In this document: one piece after another, positions 47,978 to 55,169 of the stretch
Layout: each line of letters starts with the position of its first letter
Numbering within the stretch: the first letter of the stretch is position 1
From: Eledone cirrhosa
Taxonomy: Eukaryota
DNA: 64,000 nucleotides
Direction of reading: 5' to 3'
NCBI GenBank assembly: GCA_964016885.1
Contig: OZ024752.1
Coordinates: 39,990,001-40,054,000, forward strand
Notes under the pieces: generated by a model
The model's database searches: none
What the model was told of the DNA's origin: nothing
What the model saw: only the letters and a program-made list of their open reading frames with translations
Made by a program: the position numbers and the translations under genes

Positions 47978-48918
47978 ACTTTGAATAACTTTGAAATGTT
48001 TTGGCCAGTATTGGCCCAGGCCATGTCTAACTTAATAGCACCACCTGGCGAAGTCTTTCAATTCAGGATTTGGGCACCATGGCCCATTCGAGAAGAGAAT
48101 TACTGTTTGCGGAGACATATCCGGGTGTGGGTGGTTTGTCCGGGATTACTTGGAGGAATTTGTCCAAAGACTTCTTGAATTTTGTGTGGTCAGTTTATGT
48201 TTTGACGTGTCCTGGTGTGATGTTGAAGAGAGCAGGGCCGATTGAGGTGAAATAATTGTGCCGTATTGTTGTTATGAGTTGCGATTTAGATTTTTGAATG
48301 GGATGGATAGCACGGGGCCCAAGCCTTGGGTGTATCTTGAAGGCGATGCCAACATCATTTGGGCAGTGATGATGGAACATTTTCCACATCATGCAGATAA
48401 TATAACGCTCACGGCGACGTTGGAGTGAGTAAAGTTTCAGGTTTTCTAGTCGACCCTAGTAGTCAAGGTCTGACATGCCATCTATCTTTTTCGTGATTGC
48501 CCTTTGAGGAGCTTCAAGTTTCATGATACTTTGTTTCGTGTGGGGAGACCACAGTGGACAACAGTATTCAAGGTGTGGTCGGGCAAAAGTAGAGAAGAGA
48601 AGGATAATGGTGTGGGAATCTCTCGACTGGAAGGTTCTGAGGATCCAGGAACACATTCTGCGGGCCATGTCAACTTTGCTGCTTATATGCGTGGTCCAGC
48701 TTATGTTGCTGTCCACGGTTACTCCCAAGTCTCTGATGTTGTTAGATGCCACGAGAGTTTCCCCGGAGGGAAGGGAGTACGGGAGTTTCAGAGCATCCTC
48801 TTTTCCAAAGTGGATCAGTTCGAATTTGTCTTCGTTCAGTAACATGTTGTTCTTTTCCGCCCATTGGGTAACAGCCAGTAGGTCTGACTGAAGGCTTATC
48901 CGGTCATCCACGCCATTG
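47978..48918 (-). mobile_element. CR1-group LINE 3' fragment in (TA)n
   Basis: LQSDL..W....[31 protein letters not shown]; in-frame stop. Confidence 0.85.
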
Positions 48919-49106
48919 ATATACATATATATACATATATACATATATATATACATATATATATATATATACATATATATACATACATATATATACATAT
49001 ATATACATACATATATATATATATACATACATATATATATATATATATACATACATATATATATATATACATACATATATATATATAGATACATATATAT
49101 ATATAG

Positions 49107-49173
<67 letters not shown>

Positions 49174-49220
49174 CATATATATATATACATATATATATAC
49201 ATACATATATATATACATAC

Positions 49221-49253
<33 letters not shown>

Positions 49254-49290
49254 CATACATATATATATATATACATACATATATATATAC

Positions 49291-49321
<31 letters not shown>

Positions 49322-49476
49322 CATATATATATATATACATATATATATACATATATATATACATATATATATATATACATATATATATACATATATATAT
49401 ATACATATATATATACATATATATATATATACATATATATATGCATATATATATATATATATACATATATATATAC

Positions 49477-49507
<31 letters not shown>

Positions 49508-49729
49508 CAATTAAGTTAAAAATGTACATCTACATATGCATACTGAAATACTAGCATGCATATGAATACACACACGTATACATATGTAGATGTACCAAGT
49601 CTTTCACTGGTTACTTTACTGTGAGTATCCAGCTAATCTGTATGTAAACACACAGACAAACCGGTTTTTAGAGTCATACTGGTTTTTGCGGAAACACCTT
49701 TCCTCTATTCTCCAGAAAGCCAGACAAGG

Positions 49730-49774
49730 AATATTGAACTAGTTTCGTTGTTGTTACAACTCATCAGCAATATT
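49730..49774 (-). ncRNA. minimal type I hammerhead ribozyme (intact)
   Basis: AATATTG-CUGAUGA-[GTTG taacaa CAAC]-GAAA-CTAG-UU-CAATATT; 7-bp stem I. Confidence 0.88.
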
Positions 49775-50196
49775 TACCTATCTACCGGCCTTTCTGGAGA
49801 ATCGTAAAAGCACATATCGTTATATGCCTTTTCTATGAAAATTAGTAGTGGGCAGACTAATTTGCATAGAGTGTGAGTACGTACCGGTTCAACGGAGACG
49901 ATAAAAAACAAATAACGAAACGAAATTAAATTTCGTTTCGTTTGTAACTCACTTTTGTATGACTGACGCTTAAACAATTAAGTTAAAAATGTACATCTAC
50001 ATATGCATACTGAAATACTAGTATGCATATGAATACACACACGTATACATATGTAGATGTACCAAGTCTTTCACTGGTTACTTTACTGTGAGTATCCAGC
50101 TATTCTGTATGTAAACAAACAGACAAACCGGTTTTTAGAGTCATACTGGTTTTTGCGGAAACACCTTTCCTCTATTCACCAGAAAGCCAGACAAGG

Positions 50197-50241
50197 AATA
50201 TTGAACTAGTTTCGTTGTTGTTACAACTCATCAGCAATATT
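50197..50241 (-). ncRNA. minimal type I hammerhead ribozyme (intact), 467 bp from the previous copy
   Basis: Identical to 49730-49774. Confidence 0.88.
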
Positions 50242-50608
50242 TACCTATCTACCGGCCTTTCTGGAGAATCGTAAAAGCACATATCGTTATATGCCTTTTC
50301 TATGTAACCAGTGAAAGACTTGGTACATCTACATATGTATACGTGTGTGTATTCATATGCATACTAGTATTTCAGTATGCATATGTAGATGTACATTTTT
50401 AACTTAATTGTTTAAGCGTCAGTCATACAAAAGTGAGTTACAAACGAAACGAAATTTAATTTCGTTTCGTTATTTGTTTTTATCGTCTCCGTTGAACCGG
50501 TACGTACTCACACTCTATGCAAATTAGTCTGCCCACTACTAATTTTCATAGAAAAGCATATAACGATATGTGCTTTTACGATTCTCCAGAAAGGCCGGTA
50601 GATAGGTA

Positions 50609-50653
50609 AATATTGCTGATGTGTTGTAACAACAACGAAACTAGTTCAATATT
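50609..50653 (+). ncRNA. hammerhead ribozyme copy with core mutation (CUGAUGU)
   Basis: Inverted copy of the same motif with an A9->U substitution. Confidence 0.65.
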
Positions 50654-51023
50654 CCTTGTCTGGCTTTCTGGAGAATAGAGGAAAGGTGTTTCCTCAAATA
50701 CCAGTATGACTCTAAAAACCGGTTTGTCTGTGTGTTTACATACAGAATAGCTGGATACTCACAGTAAAGTAACCAGTGAAAGACTTGGTACATCTACATA
50801 TGTATACGTGTGTGTATTCATATGCATACTAGTATTTCAGTATGCATATGTAGATGTACATTTTTAACTTAATTGTTTAAGCGTCAGTCATACAAAAGTG
50901 AGTTACAAACGAAACGAAATTTAATTTCGTTTCGTTATTTGTTTTTATATATATACATATATATATATATACATATATATATATAAATATATATATATAT
51001 TACATATATATATATATATATAC

Positions 51024-51100
<77 letters not shown>

Positions 51101-51135
51101 ATAAATAACAAAGAACGCTTATAGCATATGCATAT

Positions 51136-51193
51136 CTTTACTTGCTAACATTGTTTCATCCGCACTATAAGTGGGACTCATCAGAGCATAAAG
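51136..51193 (-). ncRNA. minimal type I hammerhead ribozyme
   Basis: Reverse complement of 53212-53269. Confidence 0.78.
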
Positions 51194-52537
51194 GTTAATT
51201 ACATACCATACAAGCAATAACAAATCCAAGACATTGAAGAATGAAAGGTAATAATAGACGATAAAGGATAAGAATAAAAATAAAAGTAAAAATAAAGATA
51301 AAAATAAAAATAAGGGGTGCTATCAGTCACAGTTGGGCGGGGTGCTGTCAACATATAGTTACATACAAGCATACACATGGATAAGAGAACAGACAAGAGT
51401 AGACACATGGATAAGAGAACAGACAAGAGTAGATAAGATAATGGGATTAGGTAAGAGTAGGTAAAAAATAGGTGAAAAACAGACTTATAATATATATAAA
51501 TAAGAAAATATAAAGAAATACATAACAAACTTACATATAAGATATAGGGTAAGGAATGAGATAAAATAATATAAAATTAAAATTAAAAATTATATACATA
51601 GAACATAATATAATATAATCGTAAAATAAGATAAAATAAGGTAAACTAAACTCGAATCGGTCAATGGCACGTGCAGACATGAATATCTCCGTAGGATTTC
51701 AACTTTATTTTACTAAATCTCATCGTATGTATTTGTTTTGAATATATTACCTGTGGTGGTGGGTCTGGTCTAATGTGGTATTTCGGTGTTTAATATCGGC
51801 TTTGACCCGGGTGTCCTACGCTGCGTGTGTGTCCGTGTATACATTTATATGTGTATGGGTGTAGGTGGTTATATGTGTCTGTATATATAAAAAAAAATAT
51901 ATATATATATATGTATACCGTCTCTGCATATGCATGTGGTGTGTATACGTGCATATACGTGCTGAACATATTGATGTGTACAATCTTGTGATGTCCCAAT
52001 GCTGTGACTTAATGGCTCTTGAAGCTATTTTTATATATCTTCTGTCTTTTTATATATATTTTGTATGCGCTACAACTGTGTCTGCTTGCTTTAACCCGCC
52101 TCACCTCGCTTGCTAATGCACGTGAATTCTTCTACCTCCTTCGATGCACCTCTCTCTGACCATTGGACTCCTGCCCGTGTGTGAACCGGTTTGTGACTAC
52201 CCCACCGCTCAACTGTGTGAATGCACACCCATGACTTTCGAGTGAACTTTCGAGACTGCCCAACCTGGGACGCCCCCATTGCCTTGCAATGGTCAAGTGA
52301 TACTGGTGACTGTGACACTTAGTGCCTTCGTGGGCCCCTGATGTTTTCAAGAAATATATTTTAAAAAATTGGTCAAGTGATACACATAACTGTGACACTT
52401 AGTGCCTTCGTGGGCCCTGATATATTCAAGAGATATATTCTAAAAAAATATATATCTTATCTCAATTTACTTTATTTCATTTTATTTTATTTCATTTCAT
52501 GTTATCTAATTTTATTTATTTACTTATTTGACTCCAT

Positions 52538-52569
<32 letters not shown>

Positions 52570-53211
52570 ATTTAAATTTTAATTTTAATTTTAAAATTTA
52601 AATTTTAATTTTATTTATTTATTTAATTTTTATTTATTTATTTATTTATTTATTTAATTACATTTAATTACATTTAATTATACATTTAATTATATCTTAT
52701 ATTATATTATTTTAATTTAGTCTATGTTATTTGATTTTAGTTTACCTTATTTTATCTTATTTTACGATTATATTATATTATGTTCTATGTATATAATTTT
52801 TAATTTTAATTTTATATTATTTTATCTCATTCCTTACCCTATATTTTATATGTAAGTTTGTTATGTATTTCTTTGTATTTCTTTATATTTTCTTATTTAT
52901 ATATATTATAAGTCTGTTTTTCACCTATTTTTTACCTATTTTTTACCTACTCTTACCTAATCCCATTATCTTATCTACTCTTGTCTGTTCTCTTATCCAT
53001 GTGTCTACTCTTGTCTGTTCTCTTATCCATGTGTATGCTTGTATGTAACTATATGTTGACAGCACCCCGCCCAACTGTGACTGATAGCACCCCTTATTTT
53101 TATTTTTATCTTTATTTTTACTTTTATTTTTATTCTTATCCTTTATCGTCTATTATTACCTTTCATTCTTCAATGTCTTGGATTTGTTATTGCTTGTATG
53201 GTATAATTAAC

Positions 53212-53269
53212 CTTTATGCTCTGATGAGTCCCACTTATAGTGCGGATGAAACAATGTTAGCAAGTAAAG
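53212..53269 (+). ncRNA. minimal type I hammerhead ribozyme
   Basis: cttta-tgct-CUGAUGA-[gtcc cact tat agtg c ggat]-GAAA-CAATG-UU-agca-ag-taaag. Confidence 0.78.
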
Positions 53270-53399
53270 ATATGCATATGCTATAAGCGTTCTTTGTTAT
53301 TTATTATATTACGGCTCTGTCCTCAGACATTGAGCTAACCTCATACTGCCTGCTGGATAAGTGGAGTGTTATACACCCCTGATCCTTTCCCTAGCATAC

Positions 53400-53849: not shown

Positions 53850-55169
53850 ATACAAAAAAAATATGGTCATCAGAACTGTCAGCATACAACAAATACATTG
53901 CCCACAATACTTATGCTGTGCCAATTCTAACGCCAACATTTGGCCTACTGAACTGGTCATTGCAAGAACTAAGTGAGATGGATGTTAGAACTCGAAAACT
54001 TCTCAGTGTTACTGGAACTTTAACATCAATGGTGATGTGGATAGGCTATACTTCTCACGCAAGAAGGTGGCCGGGGTCTAAAATCAATATTAACAACATA
54101 TGAGACCCGGATAGTGACACTGAAGCAACACCTTCAACAGAGGAAAAAGGTTGGCAACCATCTTGCCCAGGTTTATGAGCATGAAAAAAGAAATATGATT
54201 AGAATAGCGACTGATCTGGAGGAGAGATATGGAATAAAGCCTGATATAAATCTCTCACCCAGAGAAATCGGAAGATCCTATTCAATGTTCAAACAAGATA
54301 AAAAAATTGACCAATTTACAGAGAAAGTTGTGCATGGATACTTGAGGCGTAAACACAGACCATAGAGGGGATAAACCACTCAAAAAGCCTGGCATGGAGT
54401 TCCGACAAGTTTATGACATCACACCTTGAGGGATATCTCTATGCAATACAGGAACAAGAACTCCCTACCAAATATCTGCTGCACAAAAGAGGAGGGCCAG
54501 CAGCTGACAATAAATGTAGGCTATGTAAAACAAAGATCGAGGATATGTAAGCCACATTGTTGCCAGCTGCGAAAGAATGTCATCTCGCTACTACCTCCCC
54601 CATGAGACATGATGGGATAGCTAGAACTATCTGGAACGCACTTCGGAAAACAAAATTAACAACAAACGAGGAAGAATATATTGAGACAGATGGCACTAAG
54701 GAATACTGGTGGAACCTGAAAATAAAAACTGCCACCAAATTAAAGCACAACCTGCCTGATATTGTAGTTGGGGACCACACATTTGAAAACGTGTTCTGTT
54801 GTGGAGATCAGCTGCCCACTTGATGTAAACGTTGTCAGAAAAATACAGGAGAAGGAGGACATCTACGGACCATTGATGAGGAGTTTACAAATCCAGTATC
54901 CAAGATACACCTTTAGCTTCATACCCATCATTATTGGTGCTACGGGTTATATACCACCCGCTTTGGACCAAAGTATGACCGAACTTGGATTTGCGGACAA
55001 AAAGGAAGCTCCCTAATTCATAGTCTACAATGGCTGCGATAGCTGGCACCTTCAAATTTGCAAAACATTCTTGCGATTCAAGGGATGACAATTTCTTTTC
55101 TTTTACAACCTTGCCACCAGGAAGGTGGGCCGGTCAAAAAACTATACTCGAAATTAAGAGAAAGAGAAA

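Follow-up and report, generated by a model that had tools for sequence, protein, structure and literature searches.

The window analysed here is a 64,000-nt stretch of the Eledone cirrhosa genome (assembly GCA_964016885.1, contig OZ024752.1, positions 39,990,001 to 40,054,000). Its analysis confirmed the arrangement described in an earlier note made from the sequence alone: a 467-nt unit runs in tandem on the minus strand (1.72 times), is flipped and then runs on the plus strand (1.38 times), all inside (TA)n. Unit positions are numbered q1-q467 in the direction of the hammerhead strand, starting at window position 50203 with the base that follows the GUU cleavage triplet. The left arm (49504..50307, minus strand, 804 nt) has a period of 467 and runs from q364 through one whole unit to q233. 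The right arm (50304..50946, plus strand, 643 nt) comprises q123-q467 followed by q1-q300, and two one-base deletions reduce the spacing of its copies to 465. The arms meet head-to-head at an inversion junction (50304..50307), a 4-nt overlap where q364 meets q123. Both 3' ends face outward into the (TA)n target, which spans 48919..49507 on the left and 50946..51100 on the right. The left-arm end falls at a position hereafter called the short site, its exact place (49504-49509) blurred by TA microhomology, and the right-arm end falls at the long site. The outer ends, q233 and q300, are 67 nt apart in the unit (about 70 allowing for TA microhomology), as the earlier note had stated. The tail (q234-300; 50880..50946, plus strand) occurs at one insertion end only and contains an A-rich/U-rich hairpin (q262-290). 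Independent contigs of a public, untyped run (X1) have TA loose ends at both unit end positions (49901, 49971, 50483), the same two as in the window, which argues that the array is not a mis-assembly.

Two intact type I hammerheads occur on the minus strand, at 49730..49774 and 50197..50241. They are consecutive and 467 apart (CUGAUGA...GAAA at 49743-49767 and 50210-50234), and each has a 7-bp stem I, a 4-bp stem II, a palindromic stem III (ACUAGU) and a GUU triplet. Predicted cuts lie between 49737 and 49736 and between 50204 and 50203; they bound a monomer of 467 nt and 35% GC (49737..50203, minus strand), which supports the unit-length monomer proposed earlier. A third hammerhead, on the plus arm (50609..50653), reads CUGAUGU at 50616-50640; the change at 50622 (core A9 to U) is found in this copy only and is predicted to inactivate it. 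The description of the motifs thus held for two of the three cores and failed for the mutated plus-arm copy. The extended stem I and both hairpins noted earlier were found in the unit (49914-49942, 49991-50062). The long hairpin (q142-213; 49991..50062, minus strand) lies just upstream of the short site, and a homologous hairpin is present in the sister family described below. The Rfam search that had been recommended gave three matches to Hammerhead_HH9 (38.6, 38.6 and 35.4 bits; best E 1.7e-7), all below the gathering score of 52. Folding prediction for a natural two-hammerhead transcript gave pair probabilities of 0.58-0.93 for stems I and II. The circular monomer, whose folding had also been recommended, reached -143.9 kcal/mol, far below 60 shuffles (-94.4 +/- 5.5; z -9.1). 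No ORF was found in the unit or the arrays, and the longest stop-to-stop frames over the unit are 60-67 aa. The hammerhead had been likened to the minimal form of Penelope-like elements (PLEs); by the definitions given in PMC4209133 the motif instead belongs to the canonical type I hammerheads of metazoans and should act as a dimer.

A total of 4,933 exact matches to the 39-nt hammerhead core were identified in the 3.0-Gb assembly (control 0), and this genome-wide search bears out the suggestion of a retrozyme-like family with many genomic copies. A DNA search with the unit, in which 40 of 943 candidates were scored, returned 193 matches, the top ones reaching 97-99%. The forward strand by itself has 1,204 long ends followed by TA and 773 + 196 short ends, the latter counted with two patterns, one catching only the 87% subfamily and the other the rest. 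These forward-strand counts lead to estimates of about 2,400 long and about 1,900 short ends genome-wide; reverse-strand counts include repeats of the same site. Insertions genome-wide number roughly 2,400. The family comprises subfamilies at about 99, 95, 89 and 87% identity to the window copy, and its arrays reach 22 units. Loci L088 and L089, which lie 17.6 kb apart and share one retrozyme insertion together with its flanks, are a segmental or assembly duplicate, and L089 was left out of the counts.

Comparison with the rest of the genome revealed a sister family with 30,976 cores (control 22; pattern excluding the stem II of the window family), about six times as abundant as those of the window family. 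Sister units are 422-540 nt long, collinear with the window unit at about 60% identity and arranged in head-to-head arrays. The sister family (L145:7560-9501, L155, L162-L181) also carries a (TA)n-stemmed hairpin of variable length, and its hammerhead has U-U at the base of stem II and a GUA triplet.

Sequence variation in the ribozyme was analysed in 32 loci that had been chosen for their long end and include the ribozyme. At the stem II pair q445/q456, 8 loci have U-A and 24 have A-U; at position 17, 13 have U and 19 have C. The hammerhead core shows one change across the set. Core polymorphism (0/16 positions versus 79/451 elsewhere; P 0.086) is not significantly different, and the tail is less polymorphic (5/72 versus 69/351 positions; P 0.01). 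Among four units of the family and two of the sister family, pairing holds in 96.5% of cells, and both partners differ in 13 of the 24 pairs; this covariation exceeds all 500 shuffles and the slid controls, a rank that is not a probability with six related sequences. The hammerhead stems covary, and our analysis supports structural selection on the hammerhead and, with it, the earlier identification of a type I hammerhead with palindromic stem III.

The insertion ends were mapped in a core-picked set, namely all 27 loci behind the first 100 hammerhead-core matches. Of their 48 outer 3' ends, 25 lie at q298-303, 22 at q227-233 and one elsewhere, so that two fixed sites (about q230 and about q300) covering about 20 of 467 positions take 47. 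Nineteen of the 20 two-arm loci with canonical ends in this set pair a long with a short end, and the remaining one (L059) has two short ends. A larger set of 88 loci was assembled from 30 best-match stretches merged to 22 loci, the 27 core-picked loci (one shared) and 40 loci picked by long end. Arms longer than 40 nt on both strands occur in 59 of them, and short second arms were seen in others. The 59 two-arm loci comprise 53 long+short, one short+short, five long+other and no long+long. Ends abut TA repeats in 110 of 118 cases, and the tail between the two end sites measures 67-72 nt in the window family. These end sites recur in four subfamilies, with identities as low as 87%, and in the sister family, where ends near positions 268 and 317-327 of the L145 unit were seen in at least 6 of 20 loci (L166, L171, L174, L176, L178, L180), as judged from segments starting at the cleavage site alone, TA matches having swamped the output, and these positions align with q230 and q300. 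The earlier note had proposed that reverse transcription starts anywhere on a circle and so leaves ends at arbitrary points, a reading that the ends of the window locus, about 70 nt apart, would allow. This was not borne out: in the loci mapped the ends are fixed and paired long with short rather than permuted, and given that the same two sites recur, random permutation is wrong and an arbitrary start deserves almost no credence.

Stops of the 5' ends at the cleavage site were considered and rejected, as the 7 apparent q1 stops among 113 were mostly short segments missed in filtering, and no enrichment is claimed. Both flanks share interrupted words in 24 of 59 loci compared with 18 of 150 mismatched pairs, several of these words being plain microsatellite. 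L101 shows a clear target duplication of about 45 nt with unique sequence. The flanks of L031, L066, L096, L100 and L101 carry several repeats of interrupted TA units on either side of the insertion, as if the target had been amplified in tandem.

In its sequence the window family shows each trait of animal non-LTR retrozymes that was open to testing: no LTR, PBS, PPT or ORF, low GC, tandem units, one canonical type I hammerhead per unit, at least two consecutive intact hammerheads and dispersed copies. The metazoan non-LTR retrozymes described in PMC7229834 and 10.64898/2026.07.22.740005 likewise consist of tandem non-coding units of a few hundred bases with GC below 50% and have one canonical type I hammerhead with a short palindromic stem III per unit; they too occur in thousands of copies, with a highly paired predicted circle and PLEs in the same genome. 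At 467 nt the unit slightly exceeds the 150-450 bp range of PMC7229834 and falls within the 51-972 bp given in 10.64898/2026.07.22.740005. Neither main text, as searched, describes arms in head-to-head order, a pair of fixed ends or targeting of (TA)n. Circles have been demonstrated for known metazoan retrozymes, as these sources report, whereas the window family is known here from genomic sequence; only one of nine retrozyme dimers was cleaved in vitro (10.64898/2026.07.22.740005). PLEs were named as candidate movers of retrozymes in PMC7229834. A PLE origin of vertebrate retrozymes was argued in 10.64898/2026.07.22.740005 from co-occurrence and pLTR homology, in a main text that does not discuss tails, inversions or molluscs and gives no integration evidence. 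The PLE link drawn there is pLTR homology; in the window family it is the insertion footprint, and no pLTR homology was found among the loci sampled. The literature searched contained no cephalopod retrozyme and no retrozyme end footprint; the supplements of PMC7229834 and 10.64898/2026.07.22.740005, outside the scope of that search, may list such families.

The footprint itself is known from PLEs. Their insertions include an inverted 5'-truncated copy, a tail of 30-40 bp often at one end only and (TA)n targets (PMC8557442). In vitro, a PLE protein cuts both strands of AT-rich DNA and initiates cDNA at two internal positions, and the tail is what lies between these (PMC11167929). Insertions of EN+ PLEs (PMC3846280, PMC8557442, PMC11167929) share with the window family head-to-head inversion, a tail at one end only, an AT-rich or (TA)n target and fixed internal 3' ends downstream of the hammerhead. 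The window family differs from these elements, as they are described there, in having no ORF, a tail of 67-72 nt instead of 30-40, tandem 467-nt units and a canonical rather than minimal hammerhead. The unit is not an autonomous PLE, neither it nor the arrays holding an RT + GIY-YIG ORF. Chlamys MRC1-type elements (PMC8557442) are likewise non-autonomous PLE dependants with multicopy head-to-tail insertions. According to PMC8557442 they generally resemble autonomous 3' ends and belong to a clade mostly without hammerheads, whereas the window unit has a hammerhead apparently under selection and no PLE homology was detected in the loci sampled here. In the way it works, the window family resembles a non-autonomous dependant of PLEs without itself being a PLE.

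Analysis of the genome revealed 10,597 GIY-YIG candidates, with long RT + GIY-YIG frames present, and about 70 PLE loci from among these candidates were examined. One family, PLE-D, encodes RT and GIY-YIG and has at least 150 copies at 97-100% identity. A CX4CxxC motif precedes its nuclease; this motif is given for Neptune and Nematis PLEs in PMC8557442, and it is on the motif, not on a tree, that our reading of this autonomous PLE as probably Neptune-type is based. All 11 two-arm insertions among 20 PLE-D loci fetched are head-to-head, pair a long with a short end, lie in (TA)n and have a 40-nt tail. At L207:3191-6840 (minus strand) the coding region of PLE-D is divided between two overlapping frames (455 and 784 aa). 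That the 784-aa frame recurs in many copies hints at a conserved intron or frameshift. The pLTRs of L135, L147, L151 and L152 (PLE families A, D and F) contain hammerhead-like motifs with a U3/A8 core and a palindromic ACCGGU stem III, that of PLE-D having GCAA in place of GAAA.

Direct fusions of retrozyme arms to PLE-D were seen in 2 of 108 loci. In L104 (fusion at L104:3117-3410) the retrozyme arm passes at q432, in sense orientation, into roughly the final 260 nt of the PLE-D pLTR (98.6%), and the PLE-D part ends at its long end in (TA)26. L079 (1621-4120) combines a long-ended retrozyme arm and a q87-124 piece with 2.5 kb of PLE-D, which terminates at the PLE-D short end. Template switching would explain both fusions, and so would later PLE insertion with target deletion. 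Twenty further loci showed no new retrozyme/PLE fusion. Proximity across (TA)n to members of PLE families A, B, C and F was rejected as a partner link, being attributable to shared targeting. Two candidate chimeras were not counted: L090 adjoins the short end of another repeat and L032 sits at TATA beside an older PLE. Comparison of the unit with 50 GIY-YIG loci, a small share of the 10,597 candidates, by blastn (word size 7) found no PLE homology; the matches were simple repeats, one inserted copy of the family and the sister family only. The case for a partner therefore rests on architecture and the two fusions. PLE-D may be the partner of the retrozyme, a suggestion that we would put somewhat short of even, and its identity is a tentative lead.

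Taken together, a non-LTR retrozyme family with PLE-type integration is well supported, and mobilisation of the PLE type is highly probable. The comparisons make it likely that the window repeat is a self-cleaving RNA parasite that borrows a Penelope copying enzyme. As a whole, we consider it probable that this is a young, high-copy non-coding hammerhead repeat written into (TA)n by the RT/GIY-YIG protein of a Neptune-type PLE from RNA that was probably a circular monomer. Integration of this type has to be weighed against the possibility that the unit is the pLTR of an autonomous PLE and the loci are its 5'-truncated stumps. Architecture and target are like those of PLE stumps, and the small share of candidate PLE loci examined leaves room for such an element. 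However, the arms repeat the 467-nt unit up to 12 times without an ORF, none of the 108 loci runs from the unit into an ORF bar the two head-to-head or spliced PLE-D fusions, the sampled pLTRs show no homology, and the hammerhead is canonical where the PLE families seen have variant cores; a pLTR is accordingly very unlikely. The inverted arm could also stem from fold-back self-priming on an antisense template, as proposed for inversions in PMC3846280, rather than from a second target-primed event. Arms within one locus are nearly identical, and both stop at the same unit position in three loci (L081 q208/q208, L102 q262/q262, L186 q363/q363), as fold-back would have it. The inner junctions, however, are scattered: in most of the 59 loci the arms stop at unrelated unit positions, as do those of the window (q364, q123), with overlaps mostly of 0-9 nt, and both outer ends lie at fixed sites matching two internal start sites of the kind described in PMC11167929. 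Fold-back thus seems improbable, and a second target-primed event remains our reading of the inverted arm.

The form of the template is a separate question. Units differ by 0.22% within the same arm, by 0.17% between opposite arms and by 3.02% between loci (49 loci). Counting against a single monomer per insertion, a locus's own opposite arm is strictly nearest in only 21 of the 49 and tied in 13. Non-majority alleles are present in all copies in 568 cases and in some copies in 38. Locus-private alleles, private only within 88 of about 2,400 loci, occur in all copies of both arms (13), in all copies of one arm (15), in a single copy (160) or in some copies (19). This homogeneity within insertions fits one monomer per insertion, likely a circle; it is also what the circle model set out in PMC7229834 predicts, and the indirect support for a circle comes from it and not from the end positions. 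Nor do arms that run across the cleavage point, 95 of 113, prove a circle, since PLE-D also forms tandem arms running across its own hammerhead and RNA that is unprocessed makes up the main substrate in vitro, as reported in PMC11167929. Alternatively, a PLE protein could copy linear, uncleaved multi-unit transcripts, the source arrays being uniform and growing by unequal crossover and the hammerhead being kept for a purpose such as freeing 5' ends. The PLE-D arms and the limited privacy of the alleles agree with this, as does the report in PMC11167929 that hammerhead mutants left insertion in vitro unaffected; so do the periodic shared variants of three long arrays (L052, L056/57, L067), from which DNA-level duplication follows. 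Copying of L052 from a dimer circle was rejected, its variants fitting one two-unit DNA duplication. Against linear copying, lineage-defining changes would have to be re-fixed in all units of both arms, as the excess of all-copy alleles indicates; L042/43 holds 22 segments without a substitution on either arm yet differs by 0.69% from the locus closest to it; in most of the multi-unit loci checked, the variants are singletons only; and the hammerhead stems covary. Copying without a circle is therefore a serious but rather unlikely account, and a circular monomer is moderately favoured as the usual template.

Insertion through a circular monomer would proceed as follows. A tandem array would be transcribed, and two hammerheads, paired via ACUAGU, would cleave behind GUU/GUC and set free a monomer of 466-467 nt, to be closed by a host ligase. 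By analogy with the mechanism described in PMC11167929, a PLE protein would bind this RNA at internal sites and nick both (TA)n strands, one strand being primed at q300 and the other at about q230. The outcome would be the arrangement observed at the loci, with one long and one short end 67-72 nt apart and a variable inner junction. Each cDNA would pass the cleavage/ligation point for up to several rounds and so yield arms of near-identical units, and later DNA-level duplication, for which some loci give direct evidence, would lengthen the arrays. A more far-reaching reading is that a viroid-sized circular RNA without sequence kinship to PLEs recruits a Neptune-type PLE protein by structure alone, that one circle is primed twice, at hairpin-adjacent sites and from both nicked (TA)n strands, with rolling-circle reverse transcription both ways, and that L104 and L079 are template switches naming PLE-D. 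We put this combination forward tentatively and regard it as doubtful in its entirety. If true, it would provide the first genomic footprint of animal retrozyme integration and would trace the presence of the PLE tail on one side to priming strictly limited to one site per strand.

Since 2020 it has been an open issue by which enzyme animal retrozymes are moved and whether the circle truly serves as template. The family offers thousands of young insertions that bear a PLE footprint, and two start sites have been mapped; a candidate partner occurs in many near-identical copies, the sister family serves as a natural replicate, and the in vitro PLE system described in PMC11167929 makes the enzyme and template questions directly testable. 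The strict long+short pairing also bears on the origin of PLE inversions and tails. Retrozymes and the PLE footprint were each already known; the advance lies in the link between them and not in a new class.

Several further observations concern the unit and its surroundings. Of 24 runs listed, none containing the unit is marked as RNA, a result without weight for or against expression; X1, X4, X5, X6, X7 and X9 are untyped and X8 is a presumed DNA run. One 496-nt contig of X4 spans a whole unit, and X5 (88 million letters) contains few variants; neither is counted as evidence. Decayed frames at window positions 48456-48918 (minus strand) and 53860-55090 (plus strand) are each cut off at a (TA)n tract. 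A Pfam search of the frames 48456-48917 and 54045-54362 found no family, and the decayed frames resemble what we take to be ends of LINE reverse transcriptases. A second, unrelated hammerhead element occupies 51096-53390 in the same TA cluster. It has inverted arms (51096-51657 and 52729-53309, 95.5% identity), hammerheads with a long stem II at 51154-51184 (minus strand) and about 53220 (plus strand), and about 80-90 extra, tail-like bases at its right end. Copies of this element, which is probably the cut-short end of another PLE-type family, were found in L141 and L142 at 81-93%.
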